DNA of 64,000 nucleotides from an uncultured Spirochaetia bacterium (GCA_964565765.1 CAZMGF010000007.1:3222-67221); one strand, 5' to 3'. Shown: positions 3,604-64,000, numbered from the stretch's first letter. Notes: generated by a model from the letters alone, not told the origin. Numbers and translations are program-made.

Positions 3604-5952
3604 ATGAAAAATTTTAGAAATTTCTTCCTATTAATACTGCTTGTTATTTTTCCAATTAATATTTTTTCAGCCGTTACAGCCGTAACGGTTGCGCGCGTCG
3701 GAACTGACGGAGAATATCTCGAGGCAGGGACAACAAACAACCTTGTTTATCACATGTCCATCTCCACCGACGTGTCCGGTGATACGCTTTCAAATGTTTC
3801 CATCGCAAACATACTTGATTCATGGTTTGAAGGGCCTGCAACCGAACCTGCTTCAATACAGTCAGGAACGGTGAAATTATGGTATTCAGCCGATAATAAT
3901 TTTTCCGACGCGGCGCTTGAAGGCGTTTTTACCGTATCAGGCGGCAGCGTATGGAACAGCGCCCCCAATCTTTACGTTGGCAACAATTCCGGTGTCTTTG
4001 TGACCGTTGACATTTCATCCTCACCGACAGGCGGCACCATTGAAATGCAGTGCAACGGCCTTGTCTGGTCGTCGGGCCTCTCAACGCCGGCCGTGGATCC
4101 CGTCAACATGCCGTCACTGCCGGCAGTGCTTCAGATTGTCCAGAATCTGCCGGCCACTTCACTTCAGATTTCACACACAAACGGAACAATGCAGCCATAT
4201 TCATCCACCGGCCAGCAAAATCTTATTCCCATGCAGCTTTCATTTTTCAACAACTCCGGGGCCAATGCGGCGCCTATTCTGGTCACTGCCATTACACTTA
4301 CCGTCCAGACAAACTCACCTTACGGGACCATCCTTGACCCGGCTGATATAATTTCGAACATACGCGTGCAGGACTCTTCAAACGGAACAATTTACGGTTC
4401 CAACTCGGGTTCGGCCATACCGGATGCGGCCACGGCCGTAATAATACCCATATCGTCCCTTAATGTGCCTTCCGGGAGTTCGGTCACCACAACAGTTTAT
4501 ATCGCCATAACACCTTCGGCAATATCCGCCGGTGATAATTTTGTCCTTTCGCTCATTTCAGGGAATGCCGTCACGGCAATCGATTATTATACACAGGCTC
4601 CGGTAACCGTATCGGCATCACCGGCAGACGCGACGGGTTTTATAATGAACTCTAACTACACGACCATAGAACCCGCCGCTGTTTCCATAACTGCTGGCGC
4701 ATTAAGCGTAATCGCACCCAACATCAACAAGGGGCAGAAGAACGTCCCTCTCTTTGACGTCTGTTTTTCCAGCACGGTTGCGGCAAATTACGCGGCCGCC
4801 GAGGTCAACAGCATCAAGGTCACCCTGGCCGATATAAATATGAACCCGATTATTCCCTCCGGGCTCCTTTCAAAAATATATGTGACCAGCCAGGACGGCA
4901 CCATTATTTACGGTTCCAAAGATTCCACCACCCTGGAAACCTCCGGAGGCTTTACCACCATTCCGCTCATAAACACGGTCGTTGTTCCGGCCGGCTCATC
5001 CGTCACAGTTGTTGTAAGGGCCGACATAAGCCTTACAACCGTTTCAAATAATTTCAAGGCCGGAATAGCCTCTACCTCGGATATCCTGGCAAGGGACAAA
5101 AACTCCTTTTCAAGCGTTACTGTATTCTCGGCTGTTGCTTTTCCTTTCTACTCTAACACAGCGCTTTTATCCAGTTCATTTACCGTGGCGCATATACCTT
5201 ATATGCCAAAAAATCTTTATAAAGGGGATACGGGCGTAAAAATAATGGACATTAACCTTACGTCGCCGCTTTCCTTCGGATCCGGAAATATACTTGTAAC
5301 GGGCATTACCCTGACGGCATCCGACGGCAGTTCCGCGTCCGAGAATTTTTCTTCCGCCGTATCCGAGGTGCGCCTTACCGCGCCCGGCCAGGATATTACC
5401 ATAACAGCGCCGTCATCCGGAAAGCTTTACGCCGCGTTCCCGCTGACGGTTACCGTTCCTGCAACCATCTCAGTTTATATTTTCCCGCGGCCTGACGCGA
5501 CCGCGAAATCCATCCAGGTTTCTCTTGCCTCAGCTTCAGACATGGGGCTTTTACAGGACAGCGACCCGACAAGGCTCATTTCGGTCACGACCGCATCCGG
5601 AGATTCTTTCCCGATGTCGTCCGGTACGGGCTATATAACCGGCGACGCCTCGGCCCTGACGCTTACCAATTATCCAAATCCGTTTTACGCCGGCTCAACC
5701 ACAAAGTTCGCCTATTATCTGGGCGCGGCCTCAAACGTCACAATTAAAATATTTGACATAACCGGAAGGCTGATACGCTCCATCTGCGACAACTCTCCGA
5801 AATCGCAGGGATCCCATGAGGAAGATTTCTGGGACGGGACAGACACCGCGGGGCGCTGGTGCCTTGCGGGCACTTATATAGTAAGGTCGCAGTTCAAATC
5901 CGCGTCGGGCCAGACACAGGCCCTGACACGTAAAATAACTTTTGTAAAGTGA
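3604..5952 (+). CDS. Secreted repeat protein with a C-terminal FlgD-Ig/T9SS-like sorting domain
   Basis: Start preferred at MKNFRNFF (SD AAGGAG) followed by a signal peptide. Three imperfect beta-sandwich repeats. CTD: NYPNPF...IFDITGRLIR...WDGTDTAG...GTYIV...KITFVK. Confidence 0.85.
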   Translation: MKNFRNFFLLILLVIFPINIFSAVTAVTVARVGTDGEYLEAGTTNNLVYHMSISTDVSGDTLSNVSIANILDSWFEGPATEPASIQSGTVKLWYSADNNFSDAALEGVFTVSGGSVWNSAPNLYVGNNSGVFVTVDISSSPTGGTIEMQCNGLVWSSGLSTPAVDPVNMPSLPAVLQIVQNLPATSLQISHTNGTMQPYSSTGQQNLIPMQLSFFNNSGANAAPILVTAITLTVQTNSPYGTILDPADIISNIRVQDSSNGTIYGSNSGSAIPDAATAVIIPISSLNVPSGSSVTTTVYIAITPSAISAGDNFVLSLISGNAVTAIDYYTQAPVTVSASPADATGFIMNSNYTTIEPAAVSITAGALSVIAPNINKGQKNVPLFDVCFSSTVAANYAAAEVNSIKVTLADINMNPIIPSGLLSKIYVTSQDGTIIYGSKDSTTLETSGGFTTIPLINTVVVPAGSSVTVVVRADISLTTVSNNFKAGIASTSDILARDKNSFSSVTVFSAVAFPFYSNTALLSSSFTVAHIPYMPKNLYKGDTGVKIMDINLTSPLSFGSGNILVTGITLTASDGSSASENFSSAVSEVRLTAPGQDITITAPSSGKLYAAFPLTVTVPATISVYIFPRPDATAKSIQVSLASASDMGLLQDSDPTRLISVTTASGDSFPMSSGTGYITGDASALTLTNYPNPFYAGSTTKFAYYLGAASNVTIKIFDITGRLIRSICDNSPKSQGSHEEDFWDGTDTAGRWCLAGTYIVRSQFKSASGQTQALTRKITFVK

Positions 5953-5963
5953 CGGTGGCACAA

Positions 5964-7655
5964 ATGAAAAAAACACTATCAGCGCTCTCAATTGCCTTTG
6001 CCATATTATTTCCCGCCGCAGCCGCCGCCAATAACCTTTATTTCTTTTCGGACTGCGATATTAAAAACTCAGGCATGTCAGGCTCATACGCGCCTTTTAC
6101 TTCGGGCTCATTTTCACCTTTTACCAACCCCGCGGGGCTCGGCTCAGCCGAAACCCAGGAGCTGGGGCTGATGTATTACAACCTCTTTGAGGGAGCGGTT
6201 GTTGACTGCGTCACTTATGCATATCCTATTATAGACAAAGGCACTCTGTCAGTTTCGGGTATCATGCTGGATAACGGCTCTATTGAACAGCGCGACGCCA
6301 ACAATGTGCTCACCGGCACATTCACCGACACATACAAGGCCCTGTACCTTTCATACGGCATCAATATCCTGCAGCTTATGGATGTCGGCGTGAACGCCCG
6401 GTATATAAACCATGATTTTTACAACATATCAGTTTCCGGCTTCGGCATTGACGCCGGCACAATAGTCTTTCTTCCTTACGGCACAAAGCTTTCCCTGTAC
6501 GCAGGAGATCTTTTGCAGCCTGAATTCCGCTATTCTTCCACAGCCGACGCCCTCCCCCTTTATTATGACGCCACGCTCGGCTGGGAGCAGGAAGTGCTGT
6601 CACAAATTTCCGGAATATTGCGCGTCGCCGCGGGATTTTCAGGCGAAGAATATGACAGCACGGTTAACCTTCACTGCGGCGCTGAATTTTCAGCCTACAA
6701 ATTTGCTTCGGTGCGCCTGGGTGTGTCCGGCACCGGCTTTACCTGCGGCGCCTCGCTGAAATATTCCGGGGCCGAGTTCAATTACGCCCTCGTGCAGTCC
6801 AGCCTTGATCTGGTGCACAGGTTTTCAATCACATATGACTTTGGTGAAAATGTAAGATCCATAGAAAAACAGCTTTCCACAAAAGAAGCAAAGGCAAAGT
6901 TTGAACTTATAGAAAAGATAAAAACAGAAACTGTTTCCAAATACGAGGAAGAAGTTGAAGATTTTATAAAATCAGGGGATTACAGCAACGCCCTCATTTC
7001 CATACAGAAGGCCCTTGTGTGGGCTCCGGCCGACAAATGGTTCACGGAAAAAGAGGGTGAAGTACAGGCCCTGATGAATACGGAAAAAGTCAGGAATTAT
7101 ATCGATGATGCCGACAGCCTGGTCCGTCAGGACCTGTACATTGACGCGCTGGTAAGCTTAAAGAACGCCCTTGATATCGACCCGAAGAATGAAATAGCGT
7201 CCGCCAAAATGGCGCGGGCGCAGGAGCTTATAAAGACTCTCGGGGAAAAGAACCTTTCTGTGGAGGAAGGCAATAAGACCGCTATAAAAGAACACTTCGA
7301 GAGCGGCCTTAACGATTATACCGCCGGAAATTATGAAAAAGCCGTGGAAGAATGGGACAAGGTTATCAAAGCCTCGCCGCTGCAAAGACAGGTTTACAAT
7401 TATATACAGAGGGCGCAGGAAAAGATAAAGGTAAAAGAAGACGCGGCCGTGGCTAAAAAATCCGACGCCGAGAAAAAGCTTGCGTCGCTTTACAGCGACG
7501 CGGTCCTGCTTTATACAAAGGGTGAATTTGAGAAATCCATAGGCCTGTGGCGCGAATACTTAAAGCTCGACCCGGACAACAGGGACGCGAAAGAATATGT
7601 CGAGAAGATAACAAAGGAGTTCCTGGAGCTGCAGAAGCAGAAGCTGGAGTGGTAA
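5964..7655 (+). CDS. PorV/UPF0164-like outer-membrane beta-barrel with C-terminal TPRs
   Basis: Signal peptide MKKTLSALS; degenerate plug motif SGMSGSYAP...FTNPAGLG; barrel ends HRFSITYDFG; then coiled coil and several TPRs. Confidence 0.8.
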   Translation: MKKTLSALSIAFAILFPAAAAANNLYFFSDCDIKNSGMSGSYAPFTSGSFSPFTNPAGLGSAETQELGLMYYNLFEGAVVDCVTYAYPIIDKGTLSVSGIMLDNGSIEQRDANNVLTGTFTDTYKALYLSYGINILQLMDVGVNARYINHDFYNISVSGFGIDAGTIVFLPYGTKLSLYAGDLLQPEFRYSSTADALPLYYDATLGWEQEVLSQISGILRVAAGFSGEEYDSTVNLHCGAEFSAYKFASVRLGVSGTGFTCGASLKYSGAEFNYALVQSSLDLVHRFSITYDFGENVRSIEKQLSTKEAKAKFELIEKIKTETVSKYEEEVEDFIKSGDYSNALISIQKALVWAPADKWFTEKEGEVQALMNTEKVRNYIDDADSLVRQDLYIDALVSLKNALDIDPKNEIASAKMARAQELIKTLGEKNLSVEEGNKTAIKEHFESGLNDYTAGNYEKAVEEWDKVIKASPLQRQVYNYIQRAQEKIKVKEDAAVAKKSDAEKKLASLYSDAVLLYTKGEFEKSIGLWREYLKLDPDNRDAKEYVEKITKEFLELQKQKLEW

Positions 7656-8327
7656 TTACAGCTGCTTCTTTTTCCCGAAGAATTCGGCTCCCCATATATA
7701 TGCCTGCCTGACTATATGCCAGCACCCTGTGCCGGTGTCCTTCAGGAATTCCAGGTAATTAACTTTCTGTGAAACTATCGCCAGTATCAGGGCAATCACC
7801 ATTATATTCATAAAAAAAACAAAAAGCAGCGAAAAAAATATATTTGATTCCTCATACAAATCGCTCTGCTTGGTTGTTAGGGAAAAAAGCGTCAGCGCTA
7901 TATGGAAAGAAAGCGCAGCTCCCACAAAAAAAGCCACATATACACGGTATTCATCCCTGGCGATAAAATAAATAAAAGCTGCCGCGAAGGCGTAAAGCGG
8001 GAAAAAATAGGGGGCAAGCGATACCAGAAAATTTGACTTTGAAACCAGCACCTTGCCGCCGCCCGTGGTCACGTGCAGGGCCTTTGTTTTGCCGCCGAAG
8101 AGCGCGGACCAGAGCATATGGGTAAGTTCATGGGCCATTACATGCGCGAAAACCGGTTTATAAAACAGGAAATGGACGATTATATAAGCTATAAAGCCGC
8201 AGAGAAACGATATCTCCTCATGGGTTGTCACTGAAAGGCCCCGGACAAGCTGCACTATGGCAATCGCCGCGGATATGGAAAGCAGCCCGAGCACAAAAGT
8301 CAGTATAAAAAAAATTGTTTTTTTCAT
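7656..8327 (-). CDS. M50/M50B-like membrane zinc metallopeptidase
   Basis: Multi-TM protein with HELTH (HExxH) and a downstream SLAPYFFP motif. Confidence 0.7.
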   Translation of the reverse strand: MKKTIFFILTFVLGLLSISAAIAIVQLVRGLSVTTHEEISFLCGFIAYIIVHFLFYKPVFAHVMAHELTHMLWSALFGGKTKALHVTTGGGKVLVSKSNFLVSLAPYFFPLYAFAAAFIYFIARDEYRVYVAFFVGAALSFHIALTLFSLTTKQSDLYEESNIFFSLLFVFFMNIMVIALILAIVSQKVNYLEFLKDTGTGCWHIVRQAYIWGAEFFGKKKQL

Positions 8328-10598
8328 TTATCGCGCGGCCGAGAGCCTCTCGTTTACTTCCTCGAGCCTTTTGCGCGCGGTCAGGTGGTTGGGGTCCACT
8401 TTAAGCACCGCCAGGAGCTTTTCTTTTGATTCTTTGAGCCTGCTTTCTCCGAAAAGGTCCATCGCTTCCCTGTAAAGCCTGGAGGCCTCTTCGTCAAAAA
8501 GCGGCTTTAAGTCGCGCATGTATTTAAGGGCGAATTCGCTGGCAGGGTCGATCCGCAGGATTTTATTAAGATATTCCATAGTCTCCGCTGTTTTTTTGTT
8601 CCTGTAAGCTTCGTCAACTTTTTCCATAAGGCCTTCCATGCGGTTTTTCAGTATTTTCTTGACCTTTTCCATATAATCCCTCAGCTTTGTCTCCAGGGGC
8701 CTTTTCTCCACAACTTTCTTCCATTCCCTCAGGGCCGACATATAATCCTCTTCAAGCAATTTGTTTATCCCCTTTATAAAAGCCTCGGAAGCCAGCGCCG
8801 CGTCAACATCCTTTCCGAAATCCTCTTTTGCGAGTTTTCCGTAAGCTTCGTCCATGGCCGCTTTTATCTCCGGGGATTCCGGCTTCATATTCATGGCGTG
8901 GCTGAAGAGCAGGAGCGCCTCCAGGTCATTGCCGCGGGAGGCCTCTTCCTGCCCGGACCTGAACATCGCGTCTGTTTCCTTTTTTAATTTCAGCTCCCTT
9001 AATTTCTGCTCCGCCCCGTCAATGTATGACCTTGCCTGGGCGTTTGACTGGTCAAGCCTCAGGGCCTCGCGCCATTTTTCAATGGCTTCCTCGATTTTTC
9101 CAGTCTTATAAATGGCAACGCCTTCCGCGATTATGCCGGGCAGGTTTGCCGCTATGGCTATCTTTTCTTCCGCTGATTTTATATATGCCTTTATCTGGGC
9201 GTTGTTCGGGTCCAGGGAAAGCCCTTCCTGCCATTTCACAATCGCCCCTTTTATGTTCCCTTTTTTATAGATATTAAGCCCTTCCATTATCATGTTCCTG
9301 ACATCCTGAGAATTCTGATCCGCGCTGAGCCGCATCCTTAAGGCCTCAAGATTTTCCCCCACTTCGCGGTCGTCGGGGTATTTTTCACGCAGCTTTTCAA
9401 ATTCCGCGAATGATTCCTTTATCATTCCCTTTGCAGAGAGTTCCTTTGCCGCTTTTATTTCAACTGCAAGGTCTTTTCTGCCCTGTTCCTTGAGCATATT
9501 ATCCAGTATCGACTGCGCCGAAGCTTTGCTTGAAGTTATGCCTTTCATCATAAGGTCGATTTCCTGGGGCGATGTCGCGTTTTTCTTCGCGTCTTCTATG
9601 GTGATGAGCCCTTTCTTATAAAGGCTTATAAGCGACTGGTCAAAAGTCTGCATGCCGGACTGTGAGCCGTCCTTGATCAGGTCCTTGATGGAGCCCAGCT
9701 TGCCCTCTTCCATATAACCGCGCACCGTCGGAGTCACCACAAGCACTTCCACAGCGGGCACCCTGCCTCCCGCGCCGTCCACCCTGGCTATAAGCCTCAG
9801 TGATATTACGGCCCTTAAAGCGCCGGCAAGCTGCACCCTCACCTGGGCCTGCTGATCCTTGGGGAAAAAATCCAGTATCCTGCTTATCGTCTGGATGGTA
9901 TCTATCGTATGCAGCGTTGAAAACACCATATGGCCCGTTTCCGCGGCGGAAACGGCTATACCCACGGTTTCAGCGTCCCTCATTTCGCCGATAAGAATTA
10001 CATCGGGATCCTGCCTTAAGACAAATTTAAGGGCCGTCCTGAAATTTTCCGTATCCAGCCCGACTTCCCTCTGGGAAACGCTCGATAGCTTGTCGGAATG
10101 TACGAATTCGATGGGGTCCTCTATGGTCACAATATGATGGCGGAATGTTTCGTTTATTTTATTTATCATTGAGGCAAGGGTGGTTGATTTTCCGCTGCCC
10201 GTGGTCCCCGTGACAAGAACGAGCCCCCTGGGCAAAAGCGAAATTTCCGACAATATGGCCGGAAGGTTCATCTCCTCGATGGAAGGTATCTTTATGGGGA
10301 TTGCCCTTAAAACTATCTCGTATTTCCCCATCTGCTGGAAAGCATTAGCCCTGAAACGCGCCACGCCCTCAAGGTTGTACGCGAGATCCATTTCGTTTGT
10401 CTCTTCAAATTTCTTTCTCTGCTTTTCATCCATAAGGGCGAACATTGTTTCCTTCATATCCTCGCGCGACAATATTTCAAGATCCTCCACCGGCAGCATG
10501 CTGCCGTCAACCCTTAAAAGAGGCGGCCTGCCTTCCTTTAAATGCATGTCCGAGGCTTTTTTGTCAATCATCATATGAAGTAAATCGTTGATATTCAT
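8328..10598 (-). CDS. pilT: PilT/PilU-family retraction ATPase fused to about 400 aa of TPRs
   Basis: ASDMHL; Walker A GTTGSGKSTT; Asp box TIEDPIE; Walker B DPDVILIGEMRD; His box GHMVFSTLH; GMQTFDQSL; TPR array follows. Confidence 0.9.
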   Translation of the reverse strand: MNINDLLHMMIDKKASDMHLKEGRPPLLRVDGSMLPVEDLEILSREDMKETMFALMDEKQRKKFEETNEMDLAYNLEGVARFRANAFQQMGKYEIVLRAIPIKIPSIEEMNLPAILSEISLLPRGLVLVTGTTGSGKSTTLASMINKINETFRHHIVTIEDPIEFVHSDKLSSVSQREVGLDTENFRTALKFVLRQDPDVILIGEMRDAETVGIAVSAAETGHMVFSTLHTIDTIQTISRILDFFPKDQQAQVRVQLAGALRAVISLRLIARVDGAGGRVPAVEVLVVTPTVRGYMEEGKLGSIKDLIKDGSQSGMQTFDQSLISLYKKGLITIEDAKKNATSPQEIDLMMKGITSSKASAQSILDNMLKEQGRKDLAVEIKAAKELSAKGMIKESFAEFEKLREKYPDDREVGENLEALRMRLSADQNSQDVRNMIMEGLNIYKKGNIKGAIVKWQEGLSLDPNNAQIKAYIKSAEEKIAIAANLPGIIAEGVAIYKTGKIEEAIEKWREALRLDQSNAQARSYIDGAEQKLRELKLKKETDAMFRSGQEEASRGNDLEALLLFSHAMNMKPESPEIKAAMDEAYGKLAKEDFGKDVDAALASEAFIKGINKLLEEDYMSALREWKKVVEKRPLETKLRDYMEKVKKILKNRMEGLMEKVDEAYRNKKTAETMEYLNKILRIDPASEFALKYMRDLKPLFDEEASRLYREAMDLFGESRLKESKEKLLAVLKVDPNHLTARKRLEEVNERLSAAR

Positions 10599-11632: not shown

Positions 11633-14600
11633 TTATTTCACCACCGCAATCATCCTGGAGGCCGAACTTGTTCCCCCGCCGGTATTGGTGGTTACAATCT
11701 TCATCAGGTAAAGGCCGTTGCGCACATAGGCTCCGGCGCCGTTCTTTCCGTCCCAGCTTACATAGTACATTACGTTTGCCGGACTTGTCGGGTTTGCGTC
11801 GCTGCCTGTAAAGAGCGGGTGGTCGGCCGCGTCGCTGAAAACCAGGGTCCTGACAACGCTTCCGGATATGTTGTAGATGTAAACTTTGACATCCTTGATT
11901 GTGGTAATATCCGATGTGTAATAATATTTTGCCGGGCCCGCTGTCGGGTTGAATGCCTTTGTGTTAAGGAAGTGGAAAGCCGCAAGCTGGACCGACGGCG
12001 GCGCATACATCAGGGCGAAAGCGTTGCTTAAGGGTATTGCCGCCATCTGAACCTCATAGTAATTATCCGTTCCGTTGCTGACCGGTGCTGAAAGCCCGGA
12101 AACCTGCGACCACGACGCCCCGTTCCACATCCACAGAGTAAGGCTTAAAGGCGTCAGCCCCAGGCTTGTAAGCGTGGCCACATTTGCGGCGGAATAATGC
12201 ATCCTCAATGTTGTTGAACACTGGTTGGCGTTAAAACTCAGCGGCAGGACAAAAGGAGCCGCTGTAAAAGAGACGCAATTGCCCAGTATAACGTATGTAC
12301 CCGGCGTTGCGGGCGGCGACGGAATCAGCGCAGCCTCAAGGTCGGCAGCCGGTACAGCGGCGTTGTTACTGTCTGTGATTCCGCTTGTTCCGGCGACGTA
12401 GCTTGACAGCCTCAGGTATGTTGTTGTGTTTTCACCCGTGCCGGTGATGTCGACATAAGTAACCCCGGCTGTCGAAATGTTGAACTGATAAGAATATGCC
12501 CCCTGGAAGCCGTTCACGGTCGCGGCCGTCACATAGGCGGTATATTGCCCGTCTGAAATTGTGCTCGACGGTATAAAGGATAAAATATTCGTGCCTGCCG
12601 TGTGCGTCAGGGATCCGGCAATAACGCCTGCCGTGCCCGATACCATTATCCCTGAATTTGCCCAGTCCACTGCCGCGGTGCTTGACTGCAGCAGGGTGGC
12701 GTTCACAGTCGTTACCAGGAACCCCACCTGCGTTGAGGCGGACTGCTGCAGCATCTGGGTTGAGCCGGAAATTGACCCAACATTTACATTGCTTACAGTG
12801 GGTATTGACTGGTCCACAATGGTGAATGTAAATGTGACTGTCGGCCCTATATTATCGGACGCGTCCACAGGCGTAACCTGATAAGTGTAAACTCCGCCCA
12901 CGGTTATCGGTTTGTCGGGTATGTAATATATCTCCCATGTTTTTGTTCCGGGCGTGCCGCCGTTCCATGCCACGTGGCCGCCGACAGGGTTGCCGTACGG
13001 GTCATAAAGCGCGATTGTGGAAAGATTTGTCGGCCCGGCTCCCACGCCGTTGTCCTGCAGTGTGACTTTGATATAATTTGTTGAATTTATTACACCGGGA
13101 TTAAGGACCTGGTTATTTGACGGATAAGCCGAGGATGCCACTATTACAGGCGGCAGGTTGTCGGGCAGCGGCACTGTCACGTCCTGCGGCACAACAAAAG
13201 AGACGGTGGTCTGGTTTGATGTCAGCCCGTATCCTCTGTTATCGCCGATAAAACTGTCATTAAAATAACTCGGCTGGGCATGCAGCATTGCCTGGGTATA
13301 ATTTATCGTGTTTGTACCGCAAACCTCTGAAGCCGTGGCAGGTGTTCCCACCACATCTATCATTCTTCCCACAAGTATGGACCTGAATGAAACTATATAT
13401 GTGCCCGCTGAAATGGAAGTTGAATAATAAGTGTAGGAAGGTTGGGCCGTAAAAGTGCCGTTATTATTGTCAACAAAATTATTAACCGGCGCAAAGACTA
13501 TGTCCCAGTCGTTTGTCAAGATGCCGTCCGGGATGGTATATATATCGGCCGGTATTATGGAGCATGGATCCGTAGGCACCGGATTGTACGTTATCACGCC
13601 GCCGCCGTCAAGGAATCCGGAAAACGGCTTGAGATCGGCAAATTTATTGCCGTAGTTCGGGTTTGTGTAATAGTAATCTGTATCCGTCGTCGGAAAGCTG
13701 TCCCTGGGGGCCACAAATATTTCCGTACCGACGGAATTATAAAGCCTTAAATCAATGTAAATATAAGGATAATTGTGAAAGTCATGGGTTGCCCCTGTTT
13801 CACCGGCCGTATAATTAAACCCGAGGTTCGCAAGGTTGGCTTTGGAGGCGTTTATCATATTTACCCCCATATTAATTGTAACCACAGTCTCAGCCTCCGG
13901 GGTATGCGCAAACTGCGTATTTACAGCGGCCAGGGTGGCGTCAAGCTCCACTGTTGTTACTATTAAATTTGCCGAATATGGGACCCCGGTATTTCCGGCC
14001 ATGTCCGTATAATTAAATGTAAATGTGTAATTTCCGTCAACAACCTCATTGGCGTTATTATCAAGGCCGTCCCATAATATCGGATTGTTATAGCCGAAAT
14101 TTCCCGTGGCCGTCAGTGATTTTATCGTAACGGCCCCCTGTGTAATCGTCAGCGTAACCGTTGAATTTTCGCTCATGTAATAAAAAAACTGCGCCAGCCC
14201 CTTATTGGGATTATAAGGGTTTGGATTTACGTTAACAAGCTGGATTGTCGGCCTTATTCCGTCGATATTAATAGTTGTCGGCGCGGTGAAAGGGGCATTG
14301 CTTGCCGACGCCGTGCCGTCTATAAAGTTTCCCGTTATCTGGCCGTTCTGTATGTTGAACTGGTAATTTTCCCTTATAAGAAAAGCTGTGTTATAAATGC
14401 CGTTGCCGCCGTCGGTGAGCGGTATGCCGGAAATGGCAGTGCCTATGCTTACTGTCGCAGTGCCGCCCGACCCGGGAGTGCCGACGGCGCCGGATAAAAG
14501 TTGTATTATGGAATAATTTGATACAGCCGGCCCCGCAATGAGCATCGTGTTGTCAATTGTCAGCTGCTGAGGCGCGGTATAGCCCGCAGTGTCGAGCCAT

Positions 14601-14976: not shown

Positions 14977-15004
14977 GGAAACCCCTTAAAAAAGGGGGTT
15001 TTCC
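14977..15004 (-). terminator. Possible intrinsic terminator after the pepA-barrel genes
   Basis: Imperfect hairpin GGAAACCCC...GGGGGTTTTCC in the intergenic region. Confidence 0.4.
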
Positions 15005-17838: not shown

Positions 17839-19848
17839 TCAGTTTGACACGGTAAAAGTTACCACAACCCCCTTTGACTGCAGGTAGGGGATATCTGTAT
17901 TTAACGCCTGGCTTCCGAGCGGATTGTTGTTGAGTATTACCTGCGCCCCTCCGGCCAGTCCGCCGGAGTTCACATTGGTTACCAGCGGTGATACGTCTGT
18001 TATCTGGTTGGTATTGACGTCAAGATAATTCAGCGACAGGAGCCCGGCAAGCGGCGTCAGGGAAGTTATTGAATTATTGTACAGCGAAAGTATTGTAAGA
18101 GCGGGGCACTGGTCGAGCCCGCTCAAATCCGCTATTCCCGATGAAAAAGCGTTTAATGTGGTCAGGCCGTAAAGGTCGGTATTGTATATTGTCCCGGCGG
18201 GTTTACCTATGGCCGTTCTTACGGCGGCGTTCAGGTTGGCGTCCGGAAAATCAACTTCATGAGGGGTGAATGTTGGGGTTATTGTAAAAGTGGGGGTCAC
18301 GCTCGGAGTCGCCGTAAAAGTTTCGGTCCTTGTCGGCGTGACAGTCTTTGTATCCGTCATTGTCCTGGTTGACGTAAAAGTCGGTGATTCTGTGCACGTT
18401 CCGGTCACTGTCTTTGTAAGCGTCACCGTAAATGTCTGGGTTATTGTCCTGGTTATACTCGCCGTAGGCGATACCGTCCGTGTTGAAGTAACCGTAACAG
18501 TCGGGCTTATTGTGAAAGTGCATGTAACTGTCTTTGACATGGTGCGGGTCGGGGTAATGGTATTTGAAGCCACGGATGTTTTTGTAACCGTCGGGCTGAC
18601 CGTAAAGGTTTTGCTGATTGTGGAAGTAAGCGTGATTGTGGCGGTTGCCGTATATGTCGGAGTGAAGGTAAAAGTCCGCGTTACCGTGGAAGTTGCCTGG
18701 CTCACCTGAAAAACAGGGCTCACGGCTATAGGATGAACATTTGACCCGTTATTGTCGGATTCTACTGCAAATGTATAACTGCCTGCGGCTGACGGCGCGT
18801 TAAACCCCGGGCCGCCTCCGGACATTGCCCCGTATGTAACAATTATTCTTCCCGTATCGTTGGGCACCGCTGAAGCCGACACGATTATTTCCATTGATTG
18901 CGTCGAAACCTGAGTCAGGGACCCGCCGCTTACCGAAACTGTAAAATAACCCGGGTCGCCCGGATTCAGGGAAGGCTGTGAAAAACCGCCCGGAACTATT
19001 ATCTCCAGCGTACCGCTGCCCCATAATGTCTGTGGTGTATATGTTATCACGGCCGTATTTCCGCCGAAGCCTGTTGACGCTATCTGCGGAGAAATTGCTG
19101 CGGAGCCAAGCGGCGCCACTATGTCAAGCGCAGGGCTGCTCGCTATGGGCGAGGTTGTGTCCCCGCTTTCTGTCATGCCCACGGTAAAAGTAAAGATACC
19201 CGCGTTGGCCGCGGCGGCCGCGCCTGGCCCGCCTCCGCTTTTATCGCCGTAATTGACGGTTATTGTGCCTGTCGCGGCCGTAAGATTTCTTACCTGGATT
19301 ATTATCTGCATTGCATTTACGGTAACAGAATAAAGGGTGCCGTTCGTTACTGAAACCGTAAAATATCCGGGATCTGCCGCGCTCAAGCTTGGCGCTGAAA
19401 ATCCCGCCGGGATTGTAACCGAGAGCGTACCGTAAAGCGGCGCCGCCGCCCATGTTATACTGCCGGCGTTGTAAACCAGCTGCCACGTAATACCCGTCGA
19501 ATTCATCACGGCCCATGACGGCGAAAGCGATGCGACGCCTTTGGGCACTACCGGAGTATATGTGGAAGTACATGTCACCGTCGGTGATATTGTTGGAGAA
19601 ACAAAAGGCGTCAATGTCGGTGTAACCGATATTGTGGGGCTGGCCGTCGGGCTTTGCGGCGTTAAAACCGCGGAAGCCGTAGGGGTCTTTGTGCGCGTCA
19701 TTGTTGTGAGCTGCGTCAGCGCCGGTGTTTTAGGAATATCTATTATGGGGCCGGTGGGCAGCATTTTTTTCGGGTTGCATGACTGCGCGCAGGAAAGCAT
19801 CAACAATGCCGCGATTAGCAGCCTTACCCGCGCTGTTTTGCGGTTCAT
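17839..19848 (-). CDS. Putative lipoprotein: duplicated beta-domains, Thr-rich stalks and a C-terminal internalin-like LRR
   Basis: Lipobox-like LLMLS-C/AQS-C; two ~135-aa repeats sharing DPGYFTVSV and SGGGPG; TxT stalk; FPDANL...LDVNTNQITDVSPL...LNNNPL. Confidence 0.8.
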   Translation of the reverse strand: MNRKTARVRLLIAALLMLSCAQSCNPKKMLPTGPIIDIPKTPALTQLTTMTRTKTPTASAVLTPQSPTASPTISVTPTLTPFVSPTISPTVTCTSTYTPVVPKGVASLSPSWAVMNSTGITWQLVYNAGSITWAAAPLYGTLSVTIPAGFSAPSLSAADPGYFTVSVTNGTLYSVTVNAMQIIIQVRNLTAATGTITVNYGDKSGGGPGAAAAANAGIFTFTVGMTESGDTTSPIASSPALDIVAPLGSAAISPQIASTGFGGNTAVITYTPQTLWGSGTLEIIVPGGFSQPSLNPGDPGYFTVSVSGGSLTQVSTQSMEIIVSASAVPNDTGRIIVTYGAMSGGGPGFNAPSAAGSYTFAVESDNNGSNVHPIAVSPVFQVSQATSTVTRTFTFTPTYTATATITLTSTISKTFTVSPTVTKTSVASNTITPTRTMSKTVTCTFTISPTVTVTSTRTVSPTASITRTITQTFTVTLTKTVTGTCTESPTFTSTRTMTDTKTVTPTRTETFTATPSVTPTFTITPTFTPHEVDFPDANLNAAVRTAIGKPAGTIYNTDLYGLTTLNAFSSGIADLSGLDQCPALTILSLYNNSITSLTPLAGLLSLNYLDVNTNQITDVSPLVTNVNSGGLAGGAQVILNNNPLGSQALNTDIPYLQSKGVVVTFTVSN

Positions 19849-21101
19849 CTTAATGTATCCAGGAATTTTTTCAGTTCATCATCACCGGGGTTTAATTCCA
19901 GGGACTTGCTGTAATACTTCACGGCTTCCTCCGTGTTTTGCATATAATAAAAACAGTTGCCGAGTTTTTTAAATATAAGCGGTCCGGGGCTTAAAGCCGC
20001 AGCGTTTTTATACAGCGATGCCGCAGATGCGTAGTCGCCCTTTATAAACTCCGCATCTCCCTCCCCTGAAAAATCTTCTGCGGCAGCCGCCGTGGCGGTT
20101 ACAACCGGAGTTGCTTTAACAGCCGGTTTAACTTCCGGCGCTGCAACAGTTGTGGCAGTGTCCGTCGCAGTCGCAGTGGCTGCTGAAATAATTACCGCCG
20201 CTGCGGTTGCCGTGGCTATTTCAACCGTGGCTGCTGCTGTTACCGCAGTAAAAGTTGCGGTTGCATCGCTTGTAGCCGTCATTGCCGCGGTTGGCAAAGG
20301 TGTAACACCGCTTTCCTTAACAACCGCCGGGGCGTACTGCTGATTTGCTTTATTGCCGTCAAAGCTGTAATATCCCCCGAGCTGGGCATAAAACCCGGAG
20401 AAATCAGAATTAAAATTTGTCATTGTGCCGTTTATGTTTTCATCGGTTGACCTGAAAGAAGCCTGCCTTGAACCGGAAGCCGCCCTGAATCCAAAATTTA
20501 CAAATAGCCCAGTGTCCTTCTCAATAGAATATTCAAGCCCGGCTTCCGCGGACGCGCCTGGTATTACCCCGTCGATATCCTCAATGGTCGCCTTTTCAAG
20601 GTTCCCGGAGCTGTCATAGGTTTCTTCTTCGATGTAATTATTCACAGCGATAAACATCCCGCACCTTATCCCTCCGAAACATTTAAGTTCCCCTGATAGC
20701 GTAAAATATTTCCTGGCGCACAATTCAAGGCCGTAATAACTGAAAAAAACGTCCCTTTTTTCCATAGCGCTTCCGTCATGGTAATAAACCGCCCCGCCTG
20801 TTCCGGCGCGCATATATGAAACGCACAACCCGGCCCCTGCCGCGCCGTATGCCGGAGTGTCAAAAAGCGCAATCGCGCCCAGTGAAAAAATTGCTGAATA
20901 ATCCACGCCCGTAAGCGAAGCCTTGTACCCGGATGCCGTAAACGCTCCGCCCTGTCCCGGCAGAATATTGTTATATCCGGAAAATCCCCCGGTTCCAGCG
21001 CCTAAAGAAGGCTCAAAAACCAGCCCACAATAATTAATGTCAAAACCAAATGCCGCAACCCCCGAAGAGATAATTATCATAGTTAAAAAAAATCTCTTCA
21101 T
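19845..21101 (-). CDS. Outer-membrane beta-barrel with an Ala/Thr/Val linker and a C-terminal TPR
   Basis: Signal peptide; barrel ends YAQLGGYYSF; low-complexity linker; TPR KKLGNCFYYMQNTEEAVKYYSKSLELNP; 4-bp overlap with the lipoprotein gene. Confidence 0.75.
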   Translation of the reverse strand: MKRFFLTMIIISSGVAAFGFDINYCGLVFEPSLGAGTGGFSGYNNILPGQGGAFTASGYKASLTGVDYSAIFSLGAIALFDTPAYGAAGAGLCVSYMRAGTGGAVYYHDGSAMEKRDVFFSYYGLELCARKYFTLSGELKCFGGIRCGMFIAVNNYIEEETYDSSGNLEKATIEDIDGVIPGASAEAGLEYSIEKDTGLFVNFGFRAASGSRQASFRSTDENINGTMTNFNSDFSGFYAQLGGYYSFDGNKANQQYAPAVVKESGVTPLPTAAMTATSDATATFTAVTAAATVEIATATAAAVIISAATATATDTATTVAAPEVKPAVKATPVVTATAAAAEDFSGEGDAEFIKGDYASAASLYKNAAALSPGPLIFKKLGNCFYYMQNTEEAVKYYSKSLELNPGDDELKKFLDTLR

Positions 21102-56922: not shown

Positions 56923-56933
56923 AATGATTCACC

Positions 56934-58117: not shown

Positions 58118-58149
58118 ATTTCACCTCCTGCTTTTATCAACGTATACTT

Positions 58150-58169: not shown

Positions 58170-58220
58170 TGGCAAAAGGCCGTTAATTTAAAGGCTCTTC
58201 TTTGGTTTTCCGTAACTTAT

Positions 58221-58257
58221 TTGGAAATGAATGCAACCTATATGCAAAAGTTTCCAA
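58221..58257. promoter_or_regulatory. Tandem enhancer-like sites (candidate UAS)
   Basis: TTGGAAA-TG-AATGCAA (58221-58236) and ATGCAAA-AG-TTTCCAA (58242-58257), 21 bp apart. Confidence 0.6.
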
Positions 58258-58450
58258 TTGCCTGGTTCCATATGACGGTATAATGATTTTTGGACAAATA
58301 ATATTTTTTCTATAGTCTTTCGAGCCGAAAAAATCTATCTGGCCCGGCCGCCGTTGCAAGCCGCACTTGAATTTTTTGTTATTTTAGTTTATAATAATGA
58401 TGTTAATATTCAAATAGGCTGCATCTATTTTCAAAATAAAGGAGTATATT

Positions 58451-59125
58451 ATGGATGGCCAATTTTCCGTTAACAAACCGCGCCTTTTTGCGTTTATCGC
58501 GCTTATTTCCCTGATATTTACCATGGCTATATACGCCGGCTGGGGTTATCATAACGGCGGCTACCGGAACGACGGTTACAGATATGGCGGCGGGTCCCGC
58601 GGCGAATCCGCTCAGGGCACAAATTACCGGGCGGAATCGGAACAAAAGCAGGATTATAGCGGCCAGGGGTATCATAATGGCCGGGTGCGCGGTTATGGTT
58701 TCAGGTATGGGGGCTGGCGCGGCTGGTATGGCTGGTACGGTTTATACGACCCGTTCTGGCTGGTCGATATGCCCTATTTATATTTTCCATATTATCATCC
58801 TTACACGATAACATACAATTACAGCGATTTTTCCGACAGCTATTATTACAGCCCTCTTCTTGACAGGTACGAACCTGTATCGCCCCTTGCAAGTTCAACG
58901 CCTCTGGTTGATACGGCGGCCGCAGCTGCCGCGGCGCAGGTTGATACGGTGGCAAAGAAAACTGAATCAGCTGATAATACAATAACAATAAATATCCCGA
59001 ATTCCAAAGGAGGGTTCACTCCTGTAACGCTTAAGAAAACGGATGGCGGATATACCGGCCCCAACAATGAATTTTACAAGGGGAATCCGACCGTCGAGGA
59101 ACTAAAGGCGTTATACGGGAATTGA
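58451..59125 (+). CDS. Exported Gly/Tyr/Arg-rich protein with a small C-terminal domain
   Basis: SD AAGGAG; signal/TM segment; GYHNG twice; GWYGWYG; C-terminal TITINIPNSKGGFTPVTLKK...PTVEELKALYG. Confidence 0.75.
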   Translation: MDGQFSVNKPRLFAFIALISLIFTMAIYAGWGYHNGGYRNDGYRYGGGSRGESAQGTNYRAESEQKQDYSGQGYHNGRVRGYGFRYGGWRGWYGWYGLYDPFWLVDMPYLYFPYYHPYTITYNYSDFSDSYYYSPLLDRYEPVSPLASSTPLVDTAAAAAAAQVDTVAKKTESADNTITINIPNSKGGFTPVTLKKTDGGYTGPNNEFYKGNPTVEELKALYGN

Positions 59126-59185
59126 TTCCATTTTGTTTAGCAGGCTGTTATATAATAAATGTTTTATCGCCTGCGGTTTTCAAAA

Positions 59186-60853
59186 CTAAAAATTATATCC
59201 GGCAAAAGCCGATATTATAAATCCCCTGTAATCCATTGTGGTTTCCCCGGTGGTTCCCACGCCATAAACAGCGCCTTTATTAATTGTAATTGTCGATCCG
59301 TTGGATGTTGTAACCGAATAATCTTTATCAGCCGTTAATTTATCCACAATGCAATACCTGTATCCAAGGTCAAAGCCGTATGAAAGCCCTTTATGCCCTT
59401 TATCAGGATATTTAATCTTTAAATCAAGATCGCATAATCCCGAGCCGCCATAATAATTGGAATTGATGTCATAATTGCCGTATGCCGGATCGCCTGTTAC
59501 CTTAGCATTCCTGGATACTTCCGCGAAACCGTAACCCAGTCCCGCCGATACATCCACCACAAAAGGCAGGTCATATCCTTTGATTACATCGCCGGGTTTA
59601 ATTTCATATCCCGCCTCGGCTTCAAGCGGGATTAAGCCGGCGTATATATCTATGTTGTGCGGACTGCCGTTCAGGTCGAATTTTCTATTTGCGTCAATAC
59701 AAAATAAATATCCCGCCTCAGGGCCGAAATAAAAACCGTTGGCCTTCACGTCCGCGCCGGCCATTATTGATATGCCGCTGTTCATCTGCGAATAGCTTAC
59801 ATTACTGTAACTTGGATTGGCCTTGAATATTTTATTCATTGTGTACATGCCGTTGTTCAGGTTTGACATCAGGACATACTGGTAACCAGCCTCCAGGTTA
59901 ATAATCAATTTATCCGTGCCAAATGTCCATGAGGATGGAGCCGCCGCGTCAGCGCCGCCGGAATCCATGCTATTCTCTCCAGCTCCGGTTTTTATACCAT
60001 TTGAATTTTCAGCGGGCTTTTCAACCTCTTCAGTTTTCACAGCGGCCTGCGAAAAAGGATATTCATACCCGATCCCGAATATCCATGACGGCCCGGTTAT
60101 TCCGGCCTCGACCAGGATCCTGGAATCGCTTTTTGGCGGCGTTAATTCAGCGCTCAGGGAAAAATCAAGGCCGAGCCCGAGCCCCGGCAGATATTTCTGA
60201 AGAAAGGCTGAATGCCAGACGTATGTGGAATTTGATATAGGTGTGGAATAACCCGACCATGGGTCGTCAATGTTCATACCCATATAGCCGTACATGCTAA
60301 AACCCAGGGACGCGCCAAACTTTATATATTCATTCATTGCCATATGGGCCGTAAATTCCGGAGAAAGAGCCCACCAGAAACCAGATATATCTATCATATC
60401 ACCGCTGTGTATATAAACCTGGCTGCCGAAACCGTTATCAGCAAAATAATTTCCAGGCTCTCCGCCGCCCTGCTGCGTCTGCCAGTATGTATATGCCAGC
60501 GCGAGCTTTCCTTTTAAACCCCAGTCAATTGGCGTGTCATTTAGATGGAGCCTGCCCATTATCTTTTCTGCGCCGCCCTGCAGCACCAGGTCAAATGATC
60601 CGATTGTATAAGCCGAATTGGCATTGTCGTTCTGGTCAATAAAGGCCGGTACAGGCAGCCCCGAGACAGATGTGCCCATGTCAACCGAGGCTGATAAAAG
60701 TATATCGTCAACCGTGGCCGTCACATGCGGCGCGGAAATGGCTGAGATTGCCGGCGTTCCATCCGCTCCGATTTTCATCCCATCCATCGCGGAAAGACTG
60801 GTGGAAATAAGCAAAATTAACGCGAGTCCCGCAAGAACCCTGCGGTGTCCCAT
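59186..60853 (-). CDS. Outer-membrane protein with two tandem beta-barrel-like domains
   Basis: Signal peptide; domain 1 ends WIFGIGYEYPF; ~40-aa linker; domain 2 ends FIISAFAGYNF. Confidence 0.65.
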   Translation of the reverse strand: MGHRRVLAGLALILLISTSLSAMDGMKIGADGTPAISAISAPHVTATVDDILLSASVDMGTSVSGLPVPAFIDQNDNANSAYTIGSFDLVLQGGAEKIMGRLHLNDTPIDWGLKGKLALAYTYWQTQQGGGEPGNYFADNGFGSQVYIHSGDMIDISGFWWALSPEFTAHMAMNEYIKFGASLGFSMYGYMGMNIDDPWSGYSTPISNSTYVWHSAFLQKYLPGLGLGLDFSLSAELTPPKSDSRILVEAGITGPSWIFGIGYEYPFSQAAVKTEEVEKPAENSNGIKTGAGENSMDSGGADAAAPSSWTFGTDKLIINLEAGYQYVLMSNLNNGMYTMNKIFKANPSYSNVSYSQMNSGISIMAGADVKANGFYFGPEAGYLFCIDANRKFDLNGSPHNIDIYAGLIPLEAEAGYEIKPGDVIKGYDLPFVVDVSAGLGYGFAEVSRNAKVTGDPAYGNYDINSNYYGGSGLCDLDLKIKYPDKGHKGLSYGFDLGYRYCIVDKLTADKDYSVTTSNGSTITINKGAVYGVGTTGETTMDYRGFIISAFAGYNF

Positions 60854-60908
60854 ACAATGCCTCCTATTTTTAATAAAAACACAAAATAATTTTTACGCAA
60901 GAGGCGGG

Positions 60909-62681: not shown

Positions 62682-62694
62682 TATTTATCCACCG

Positions 62695-64000
62695 CTACTT
62701 CTGCACTATAAACTTGTTTATTTTATATTTAATTTCTTTTCCGGATGCCGTCACGGCTTTTATCAGGTAATAATAAACGCCCCTGCTAAACCGTGAAATA
62801 TTGACCCCTGTAATTTCCGCAATATTTGACGCCGCCACATTACTCCCCGAAACTGTCTTGACTAAATTTCCGGCGAAATCAAATATATTTATTGTTACAC
62901 TGGCGGTTTCGTTGAGCGAAAAAACAAACGAAATGCTTGATGAAGCGGGCATCGGATAAACATAAGAATCGTCATTGGCCGGGATATCCAGTGAAGCCAC
63001 AGGCGTGGGTGTCGTAGTATATGTAGGAGTAGGCGATTCAATAGGGGTCACTGTGTACGTTGGAGAAACCGTCCATGTCTGTGTAATTGTCGGCGTAATT
63101 GTAGCGGTTATTAAATATCCGGAATTGGGGCAAAAATTGGCGTAAATTGACCATTCCCGTGATTGCTGTGAATAACCGCTGCCGAACGGATCCGGAAGGG
63201 TCCCGAATGTATTGGCAATAACCGCACCCTCTCCCGGCAATGAATCCGTGTAATAAACTCCGATACCTGTCTGCGCTTCGACGGCAAGCCAATAAAAACC
63301 CGCTGAAAGCGGCATAACAGGGATGCTTACCACATTCCATCCCGGCGAACACGTAATCGGAGCGGACGGAACAATAAGCGAATCCGGAGCGTCGGAATTA
63401 TCAGAATAAATTGCCGCCATTATCATGCCGCTGCCGGAGCTCACATAAACATTAAGTTGCAATATTGTTGAATCCTGAAGCAGTTGGAACCTGCTTGCAT
63501 AAAGGCTTGATCCGCCGCTTATCATAACACTGGAACCGGAGTTGTTTCCGAATGTGCCAGCGGCGCAGACTGTAAGGGTCAGTGTTGGCGTTGCTGTAGG
63601 TATGCTTGTAAAAGTATTGGTTACCGTAAATGTCTGGCTTGGTGTTTGCGTTAAAGAATCCGTCCCGGTAGCCGTTTGCGTAACCGTCCAGGTATAAGTA
63701 GAAGTATATGTCGGAGTAATTGTTTTAGTATGAGAATATGTTTCAGTTGGAGTATATGTATAAGCATCCGTTCCGGTCAGCGTAAAAGTAAATGTGGGTG
63801 TTCCGGTAAAAGTCGGCGATATGCTCGATGTGGGTGTAATTGTAGCTGATATTAAAATAGTTGTCGCCGTCTGTGTTATTGACCATGTGGGCGTGATTGA
63901 AGGTGTTTTTGAAGGGCTCGCAGTCAGAGTGGCTGATAATGTGCATGTAAGGGTTGGTGTGTTTGTCGCGGTAATGGTAACAGTGGGAGTATATGTCTGC
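62695..64000 (-). CDS. Secreted protein with Thr-rich stalks, a small beta-domain and a T9SS type-A-like CTD; 5'-truncated by the window edge
   Basis: The frame is open from 64000 (..QTYTPTVTITATN..) through the track ORF 62695-63525. CTD: YVYPMPA...IFDFAGNLVK...GVYYYLIK...KFIVQK. Confidence 0.85.
   Translation of the reverse strand, partial: QTYTPTVTITATNTPTLTCTLSATLTASPSKTPSITPTWSITQTATTILISATITPTSSISPTFTGTPTFTFTLTGTDAYTYTPTETYSHTKTITPTYTSTYTWTVTQTATGTDSLTQTPSQTFTVTNTFTSIPTATPTLTLTVCAAGTFGNNSGSSVMISGGSSLYASRFQLLQDSTILQLNVYVSSGSGMIMAAIYSDNSDAPDSLIVPSAPITCSPGWNVVSIPVMPLSAGFYWLAVEAQTGIGVYYTDSLPGEGAVIANTFGTLPDPFGSGYSQQSREWSIYANFCPNSGYLITATITPTITQTWTVSPTYTVTPIESPTPTYTTTPTPVASLDIPANDDSYVYPMPASSSISFVFSLNETASVTINIFDFAGNLVKTVSGSNVAASNIAEITGVNISRFSRGVYYYLIKAVTASGKEIKYKINKFIVQK

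Follow-up and report, generated by a model that had tools for sequence, protein, structure and literature searches.

Introduction

How does a large secreted protein reach, and keep, its place on the outer membrane when the gene that follows its own encodes a barrel resembling the carriers in a type IX secretion system (T9SS)? This question is raised by a stretch of 64,000 nucleotides from an uncultured Spirochaetia bacterium (GCA_964565765.1, CAZMGF010000007.1:3222-67221; called the window below, always at its full length and with positions counted from its first letter), in which three large secreted proteins (hereafter cargo), each with a C-terminal domain (CTD) of the T9SS or FlgD immunoglobulin (Ig) type, are encoded directly upstream of PorV-like outer-membrane barrels. 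We consider it probable that each pair joins a large surface protein to an outer-membrane carrier or anchor dedicated to it, which displays its neighbour on the cell surface. The cargo–barrel module is not peculiar to this genome and is widespread in several phyla.

In the known systems, type A cargo uses the general carrier PorV, whereas each type B cargo has a dedicated and usually adjacent carrier of the PorP/SprF kind, on which the cargo stays anchored and whose periplasmic C-terminal tail connects to the periplasmic machinery (PMC12635249; PMC12618676). Substrates of the T9SS translocon bind the loops of carrier proteins (PMC10994853). PorU and PorZ retain their CTDs and sit on PorV and PorQ, respectively, and one review proposes “cognate PorV-like barrels” (PMC10202324). 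Reviews confine the T9SS to the Bacteroidota or to the Fibrobacteres–Chlorobi–Bacteroidetes (FCB) group (PMC10202324; PMC12398890).

In current models PorV is general for type A cargo, dedicated carriers exist for type B cargo only and the T9SS is a Bacteroidota or FCB trait. In the window, and for about one third of the PorV-like genes listed from other phyla, a barrel gene of the PorV/PorQ family directly follows one gene for a CTD protein and is inherited together with it, including in lineages without a described T9SS. If the pairs do encode cognate carriers or anchors, the repertoire and the phylogenetic range of CTD–carrier recognition would be wider than assumed, a simple genomic rule would be at hand for predicting surface-displayed proteins in uncultured phyla, and the origin of the T9SS would become directly testable, the carrier/CTD module or the machine having come first. 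Our literature search found no paper on cargo–PorV-family gene pairs, on type A cargo with PorV paralogues as partners or on T9SS-like components in Goldbacteria or Elusimicrobia; the databases name such proteins in Goldbacteria, Elusimicrobia, WOR-3 and Omnitrophota “PorV/PorQ family protein”.

Three cargo–barrel gene pairs

The three pairs comprise the following features (aa, amino acids).

3604-5952, plus strand: cargo 1, a secreted protein of 782 aa with a visible Sec signal peptide, ending KKITFVK; its passenger is beta-rich and matched no Pfam family, and its CTD covers about residues 690-782 (window 5671-5949)
5964-7655, plus strand: barrel 1, 563 aa, with the barrel at about residues 1-300 and a tetratricopeptide repeat (TPR) tail at about 300-563
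14905-11633, minus strand: cargo 2, a secreted protein of 1090 aa with a visible signal peptide, ending MIAVVK; it has an internal FlgD_ig domain at residues 248-300 and a C-terminal FlgD-Ig-like domain at about 985-1090 (window 11636-11950)
11631-10627, minus strand: barrel 2, a tail-less PorV/PorQ-family protein of 334 aa with 14 strands
>64000-62695, minus strand: cargo 3, of which the window holds the C-terminal 434 aa, ending NKFIVQK; this part contains linkers rich in Thr and Pro, a module resembling a beta-sandwich and a canonical T9SS type A CTD, and the full gene (locus L001, 4939-8559) encodes 1206 aa
62681-60909, minus strand: barrel 3, 590 aa, with a 14-strand barrel at about residues 30-297 and an all-helical TPR tail at 299-589

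The gaps between cargo stop and barrel start are 11 bp in pair 1, 1 bp in pair 2 and 13 bp in pair 3; these, the coordinates and the cargo endings KITFVK, MIAVVK and KFIVQK were all reproduced from the sequence as they had been given in the original prediction. All three barrels have MKKT as their N-terminus, and the hexamer CGGTGG sits 8-13 nt 5′ of each ATG; it resembles a Shine-Dalgarno site and fits coupled translation of cargo and barrel. A terminator-like hairpin (7646-7668) follows barrel 1, and a promoter-like site (14969-14942, minus strand) and another hairpin (14977-15003) lie upstream of cargo 2. The barrels are mutually only 22-25% identical and the three CTDs have diverged to a similar degree, which marks the pairs as old paralogues and not as recent duplicates.

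C-terminal domains of the cargo proteins

The tails of cargo 1 and cargo 3 are recognised by T9SS sorting-domain models and reach the last residues of the proteins. The CTD of cargo 1 scores 27.0 bits with TIGR04183 (cut-off 23) and 25 bits with FlgD_ig; that of cargo 3 scores 30.4 bits with TIGR04183 (25.2 at full length, cut-off 23) and 37 bits with PF18962 (Por_Secre_tail, cut-off 27). At the C-terminus of cargo 2 only FlgD-type models match (residues 1006-1080); its CTD is homologous to that of cargo 1 (hhalign probability 96.7%) and shows a weak similarity to that of cargo 3 (23%). None of the window cargos matches the type B models TIGR04131 and CHU_C (PF13585) at E <= 0.01. The earlier description of the three tails as CTDs of the T9SS or FlgD-Ig type is therefore borne out, by TIGR04183 for cargos 1 and 3 and by the FlgD-type models for cargo 2.

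Each pair has CTD endings of its own, KKITF[VI]K in pair 1, AVVK in pair 2 and NKF[IL]V followed by a terminal basic residue in pair 3. As a lone query in a word-indexed homologue search, the CTD of cargo 2 recovered one fragment. For the CTDs of cargo 3 and its orthologues, the strongest local matches were with NF052323, a model for a T9SS-dependent M6-like protein, and the accession of the NCBIfam “putative PorV2” model, NF052325, lies close to it; these neighbouring accessions hint, as a lead only, that curators may have noticed a cargo–PorV2 pair.

Long Thr/Pro-rich linkers (TxTxT, PT) are common in the secreted proteins of this lineage, for instance in the window at 62695-64000 and 17839-19848 (both minus strand) and in locus L004 at 2759-5299. 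They create spurious long open reading frames (ORFs) on the opposite strand, such as those at window 18266-18709 and 19541-19972 (both plus strand).

Barrel family and predicted fold

The barrels were compared with NF033709, the NCBIfam model of the PorV/PorQ family (cut-off 90 bits), with which barrel 1 scores 75.8, barrel 2 a marginal 90.4 and barrel 3 100.1 bits. Barrel 1 also scores 58 bits with PorQ, and barrel 2 scores 26 bits with the Pfam PorV model. The highest scores of any window barrel with the equivalog models are 43.3 bits for PorV, 64.6 for PorQ and 40.6 for PorV2. With UPF0164 (PF03687, cut-off 21.4) barrel 3 passes at 26.7 bits, barrel 2 stays below at 19.4 and barrel 1 has no match, and with Toluene_X (PF03349, gathering threshold 29.7) barrels 2 and 3 stay below at 18.0 and 23.6 bits and barrel 1 again has no match. 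The PorP-family model TIGR03519 matches none of the window barrels at E <= 0.01.

AlphaFold2 models were built for barrel 3 from an alignment of 23 sequences and for barrel 2 from one of 43. In the model of barrel 3, an N-terminal helical segment bearing an NPAG motif precedes 14 long strands (predicted local distance difference test, pLDDT, 82-93 in the barrel) and the helical tail at 299-589; that of barrel 2 (pLDDT 84.5; predicted template modelling score, pTM, 0.80) has exactly 14 strands and likewise an N-terminal segment with the NPAG motif. The best Foldseek matches of barrel 3 in the PDB are PorV chains in SprA complexes, 8gl6_F (E 2.9e-11) and 6h3i_F, with target-normalised template modelling (TM) scores of 0.63-0.64, and structures of FadL and TodX come behind them at 0.39-0.51. 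For barrel 2 the best match is again PorV (8gl6_F, E 3.5e-12, query-normalised TM 0.66). The predicted fold of barrels 2 and 3 is thus that of the FadL superfamily, with PorV as the closest solved member. Calling the barrels PorV-like, as the original prediction did, agrees both with the NF033709 profile and with this predicted fold, in which 8gl6_F and 6h3i_F rank ahead of FadL and TodX in most measures. On the worry expressed there, that the barrels might model as FadL-type transporters, the models come down cleanly on neither side: the fold is a FadL-superfamily fold with the NPAG motif, but PorV ranks above FadL in both models, and the decision falls to the context.

That two of the three barrels carry TPR tails also stood up, with matches to TPR_2 and TPR_11 for barrel 1 and a modelled helical tail for barrel 3. 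Two cysteines in the tail of barrel 3, C441 and C508 (in the contexts YYNNCDY and CPAY), are invariant in 23 of 23 aligned orthologues. In Flavobacterium, functional disulfides link GldK to cysteines of the periplasmic SprF tail (PMC12635249).

Conservation within the lineage

Four different labels are found on orthologues of two barrels, one each of Candidatus Goldbacteria, Candidatus Goldiibacteriota, Spirochaetia and Firmicutes. The host is a probable member of the Goldbacteria (Goldiibacteriota), since two labels name this group (the other two differ), the window carries a flagellar gene cluster including flgH and flgI (about 21-58 kb; window GC about 47%) and related contigs carry genes of the cellulase/carbohydrate-binding module (CBM), GH94 and GH30 kinds. 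The Goldbacteria have been placed next to the Firestonebacteria and Elusimicrobia, sister phyla from which flagella separate them (PMC7031533). Judging by the labels and by the full flagellar cluster, the lineage very probably lies outside the Bacteroidota, as had been supposed at the outset.

Orthologues of barrel 3, which are 40-65% identical to it, have a gene for a CTD3-type protein directly upstream in all nine distinct cases in which upstream sequence was available, and their surroundings otherwise differ, being ribosomal protein genes, OsmC or an aminotransferase; one contig carries two such pairs in tandem. The passengers of cargo 3 are homologous to each other across these loci, which speaks for a conserved operon rather than a generic cassette. 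Pairs 1 and 2 form a block that is intact in two relatives (loci L090 and L091), whose barrel 2 is 47-54% identical to that of the window. There, an M17 peptidase and a small outer-membrane protein are followed by cargo 2, barrel 2, a PilT-like ATPase with TPR and an M50B-like membrane protein, and then by the convergent barrel 1 and cargo 1, MerR and ComFB, after which L090 alone continues into a giant protein of 3993 aa. The cargo 1 orthologues of both loci share the ending of cargo 1, and their barrel 1 orthologues remain paired with a cargo1-type gene. A scan of metagenomes gave at least six loci.

Tandem cargo–barrel pairs are seen at L005 (6202-17988) and L008 (1905-7394), and a single cargo followed by two successive barrels in L017, L058, L059 and L062.

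CTD proteins are also encoded without an adjacent barrel in the related contigs, with lengths of 969, 787, 1282 and at least 707 aa; such genes lie at L096 8509-11418, L004 260-2623 and L092 3-2126. We read the 969-aa protein (HExxH motif, HENGH) as an M6-like metalloprotease that may carry a CBM3-like module and that has a CTD. It follows that only a subset of the cargo is paired and that some general CTD route probably exists.

Enrichment and co-diversification across phyla

A scan with the motif [AS][IL]YYNPAG[LI], using one genome per GTDB species, gave at least 80 loci, a convenience sample with no Goldbacteria among the loci listed. In the 80 listed loci, ORFs were called and a CTD profile was built iteratively; 86 PorV-like barrels had an upstream gene. 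All the counts that follow refer to these loci. A CTD protein is encoded immediately upstream on the same strand of 30 of the 86 barrels (35%) and immediately downstream of 5 of 85, and CTD proteins make up 22 of the 658 other genes (3.3%). The upstream position is thereby enriched over all other genes with an odds ratio of 15.5 (p = 2e-17), an estimate that is partly circular because the CTD profile was built from the same loci. Pairing was found in 7 of 11 loci from Elusimicrobia, 2 of 2 from Stahlbacteria, 2 of 4 from WOR-3, 5 of 20 from Zixibacteria and 3 of 12 from Ignavibacteria, as well as in Calditrichota, in one Bacteroidales metagenome-assembled genome (MAG) and in one Spirochaetia MAG; an upstream CTD is present at 1 of 5 Spirochaetota loci and at neither of the two from Leptospira/Leptospirales. 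Adjacency beyond chance, on which the original prediction depended, is thus evident both from this enrichment and from the pairing of nine out of nine barrel-3 orthologues.

Independent Pfam models were applied to the C-termini of 27 upstream proteins, of which 14 matched FlgD_ig, 12 the type B model CHU_C and 6 Por_Secre_tail. All nine of the paired barrels tested from elsewhere score approximately at or above the NF033709 cut-off (one at 89.9 bits) and below the three equivalog cut-offs. A second, PorQ-like class of barrel (about 315 aa) in Zixibacteria and Ignavibacteria is flanked on either side by a small conserved ORF and lacks a CTD neighbour. We considered whether the genes upstream of the barrels in FCB loci might be porU, the pairs then being porU-porV, and rejected this, as none of the eight proteins tested reaches the PorU or PorZ models.

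The CTDs and the barrels diverge in parallel. In 26 of 43 pairs, the nearest neighbour of the CTD and that of the barrel belong to the same other pair (about one would be expected by chance), and CTD and barrel distances are correlated (Mantel rho 0.27, a value reached in none of 2000 permutations of the 43 pairs). Where a genome has two or three pairs, each is closest to its orthologue elsewhere and not to its genome-mate. The pairs are thus inherited and diverge as units, which agrees with cognate specificity without proving it, because plain vertical inheritance of an operon would give the same pattern. With the tight gaps and the orthologous loci, these data establish the three pairings of the window as real, operon-like and evolutionarily conserved.

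The pairs at L071 4810-9062 (WOR-3 MAG) and L074 4783-9062 (Bacteroidales MAG) are very similar in both CTD and barrel (normalised bit scores 0.85 and 0.78), and L033 (Zixibacteria), L034 (FCB group) and L039 (Ignavibacteriales) show a similar likeness across phyla (about 0.6). Such likeness between MAGs assigned to different phyla points either to whole pairs having been transferred horizontally or to errors in binning.

A proposed carrier or anchor dedicated to each cargo

How such a pair might work can be outlined from the known systems. The cargo would be exported to the periplasm by Sec, for which signal peptides are visible in the sequence, and the cognate 14-strand barrel of the PorV/PorQ family would use its extracellular loops to recognise the Ig-like beta-sandwich CTD, as PorV does with type A CTDs in the solved T9SS translocon. 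The cargo would then remain non-covalently held on its own barrel at the surface, in the manner of PorU/PorV, PorZ/PorQ and SprB/SprF, and barrels 1 and 3 might use their periplasmic TPR tails to link the carrier to a periplasmic partner or to receive the incoming cargo. The route across the outer membrane could be a SprA-type translocon encoded elsewhere or the barrel itself. We infer the physical binding of CTD and barrel, its specificity, the surface localisation of the cargo and the role of the TPR tails.

The closest precedent is SprB-SprF of Flavobacterium johnsoniae, in which there is likewise one carrier per cargo, encoded by linked genes (PMC12618676; PMC12635249; PMC9143113), the cargo stays bound to the carrier at the surface and the carrier has a functional periplasmic C-terminal tail, a function that is proposed here for the TPR tails. 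The window pairs differ in several respects: their barrels belong to the PorV/PorQ family and do not match TIGR03519, their CTDs are of the type A or FlgD-Ig-like kind, barrels 1 and 3 have TPR arrays of 260-290 aa in place of the short Cys-X-Cys tail of SprF, and the organism is very probably not a member of the Bacteroidota. With PorV, and with PorU-PorV and PorZ-PorQ, the window pairs share the 14-strand FadL-like barrel, for which PorV is the best structural match, and in the known complexes it is the loops that bind the CTD beta-sandwich. PorV, however, acts for every type A cargo instead of being encoded anew with each, and, in contrast to PorU-PorV and PorZ-PorQ, the window passengers are neither PorU nor PorZ and the barrels score far below the equivalog cut-offs. 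The original prediction had seen “a different logic” in cognate PorV paralogues for each cargo. This was overstated, dedicated carriers being known for type B cargo and cognate PorV-like barrels having been proposed for PorZ/PorQ and PorU/PorV (PMC10202324); what is new is dedicated barrels of the PorV/PorQ family for type A or FlgD-Ig-like CTDs, encoded by adjacent genes outside the Bacteroidota.

A further comparison is offered by TP0548, TP0859 and TP0865 of Treponema pallidum, FadL-like barrels with a periplasmic TPR-helical extension that was reported to be unique (PMC8407342). They resemble the TPR-tailed window proteins in their N-terminal 14-strand barrel of the FadL superfamily, the NPA hatch motif and the C-terminal helical TPR domain (PMC8407342), but they have been read as nutrient importers and no pairing with a CTD protein has been described for them. 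The TPR-tailed barrel architecture is widespread and not unique to these proteins.

Several observations weigh against a dedicated carrier or anchor for each cargo. The CTD of cargo 2 matches neither TIGR04183 nor PF18962 at E <= 0.01, barrel 1 falls short of the NF033709 cut-off, and no window barrel reaches the equivalog cut-offs for PorV (NF033710, 250 bits), PorQ (NF033711, 220) or PorV2 (NF052325, 325). For barrel 2, FadL structures come a close second to PorV (query-normalised TM 0.56-0.64 vs 0.66). To these must be added the CTD proteins of the lineage that lack an adjacent barrel, the partial circularity of the enrichment estimate and the fact that parallel divergence also arises from vertical inheritance.

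If the barrels do not hold their neighbours in the way proposed, they could still export them. A barrel with a periplasmic TPR tail might be a complete translocon for the neighbouring protein, independent of SprA and PorKLMN, a reading that we regard as unlikely, though it is the main rival. Its model would be Slam, reportedly described by Hooda et al. in 2016 as a TPR domain joined to a 14-strand barrel, which brings surface lipoproteins encoded beside it to the cell surface. In Slam the TPR domain is N-terminal, the barrel is of the DUF560 family and the substrates, which are lipoproteins, are recognised by a beta domain at their C-terminus. Two-partner secretion offers a comparable case. 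The likeness, which is an analogy of mechanism and not of membership, lies in the combination of TPR with a 14-strand barrel, in a gene that is often found beside that of an exported surface protein and in a C-terminal beta domain. The occurrence of the module in lineages without a reported T9SS (Elusimicrobia, Spirochaetia MAGs, Goldbacteria), its nature as a compact two-gene unit that moves among genomic contexts, and the frequency of TPR tails on the barrels, with OmpA or HEAT tails in other phyla, all favour self-contained export, as do weak matches to TPR_Slam. Yet the domain order is the reverse of that in Slam, Slam substrates are lipoproteins, the TPR_Slam match (PF24575, barrel 1 only) is sub-threshold at 17 bits vs 35.2 and DUF560 gave no match. 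For cargos 800-1800 aa long, a plugged 14-strand barrel of the FadL type would moreover be narrow, a tail is lacking in barrel 2 and in most of the paired barrels from other phyla, the barrel-less CTD enzymes of the lineage imply a general CTD route, and the module also occurs in FCB phyla, a superphylum with a reported T9SS. Should the lineages concerned prove to lack SprA and PorKLMN, self-contained export would gain weight. We give a comparably low probability to the broader idea that the pair is an autonomous display or export module, older and wider than the T9SS of the Bacteroidota and free of SprA and PorKLMN in phyla such as Goldbacteria and Elusimicrobia, and that the T9SS recruited its carrier–CTD recognition.

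The fold of the barrels would also suit uptake channels of the FadL/TodX type (UPF0164) for hydrophobic nutrients, in which case the adjacency to CTD proteins would be mechanistically meaningless. The FadL-superfamily fold with its conserved hatch motif NPA(G), the UPF0164 match of barrel 3, the weak Toluene_X matches and the combination of barrel and periplasmic TPR-helical tail in the T. pallidum proteins (PMC8407342) are in keeping with this. We nevertheless think it improbable: the order cargo then barrel is 15-fold enriched, in at least eight phyla, and holds for nine of nine members of the barrel-3 family; the genes are tightly coupled, with gaps of 1-13 bp; the top structural match of both models is PorV and not FadL; the Toluene_X scores (18-23.6 bits) remain under 29.7; and CTD and barrel diverge in parallel. 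Least probable of all, to the point of being very doubtful, is that the pairs are the lineage's counterpart of PorU-PorV and PorZ-PorQ and hence parts of an attachment machine, not cargo and carrier. The retention of CTDs by PorU and PorZ, which sit on PorV and PorQ (PMC10202324), would agree with such a role, as would the comparable sizes of the proteins (782 and 1090 aa) and a local match of the cargo 1 CTD to the C-terminus of the PorU model. A further parallel is the gene order of Porphyromonas gingivalis, in which porU and porV are adjacent. With the PorU model (NF033707), however, the match is confined to the last ~100 residues, at 34.6 bits against a cut-off of 420, the PorZ model gives no match, and there are three pairs as well as tandem duplicates, with passengers that are unrelated between pairs.

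Neighbouring genes and other features of the window

No ORF in the window is large enough for SprA, and PorU and PorK-N were unmatched among the scanned proteins, which did not include every ORF. In a non-exhaustive scan, neither the window nor some 150 kb of related contigs showed SprA, PorL/M, PorK/N, PorU, PorZ, PorT or PorG. The earlier statement that sprA, porK-N and porU are missing from the window therefore holds for the proteins scanned, but 64 kb say nothing on the genome as a whole. Rfam and tRNA scans of the window detected nothing.

Two further genes belong to the operon of pair 2.

8328..10598, minus strand: a PilT-like ATPase (T2SSE, PF00437, 157 bits; ATPase at residues 1 to about 350) with a region of about 400 aa that has TPR matches
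7656..8327, minus strand: a polytopic membrane protein of 223 aa bearing an HExxH motif; its gene closes the cargo 2–barrel 2–ATPase operon

The ATPase gene starts 28 bp after barrel 2, and the start of the membrane protein gene abuts its stop (0 bp). An orthologue of the membrane protein in L091 matches PF13398 (Peptidase_M50B); the window copy has no Pfam match. With 28% identity (E 5e-13), the presumably cytoplasmic TPR region of the ATPase resembles the periplasmic tails that barrels 1 and 3 carry. The ATPase and the M50B-like gene are kept beside pair 2 in relatives of about 50% identity (L090 11032-13962 and L091 11049-13954). The ATPase was rejected as a general part of the module, being found beside pair 2 in the Goldbacteria-like lineage only and not beside the pairs from other phyla.

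A protein of 555 aa (59186-60853, minus strand) is encoded 55 bp 3′ of barrel 3 and ends in GYNF, as outer-membrane proteins typically do, with no family match; it too is probably no part of the module, since only near-identical contigs carry it and the orthologous pair-3 loci lack it. The region 17839-21101 (minus strand) encodes a 418-aa protein in which a beta-rich domain at the N-terminus is joined by a linker rich in Ala and Thr to a TPR domain at the C-terminus, and the end of this gene overlaps by 4 bp the start of that for a 669-aa Thr/Pro-rich leucine-rich repeat protein with a lipoprotein-like signal and no CTD. The two genes may represent another pairing of an outer-membrane protein carrying TPR with a surface protein, in the reverse gene order. 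At the left edge of the window, an ORF at 3-2399 (minus strand) encodes the N-terminus of a giant secreted protein, the first 799 aa of which have no Pfam match; its counterpart is the 3993-aa protein of L090 (20011-20999), which there comes after MerR and ComFB, beside pair 1.

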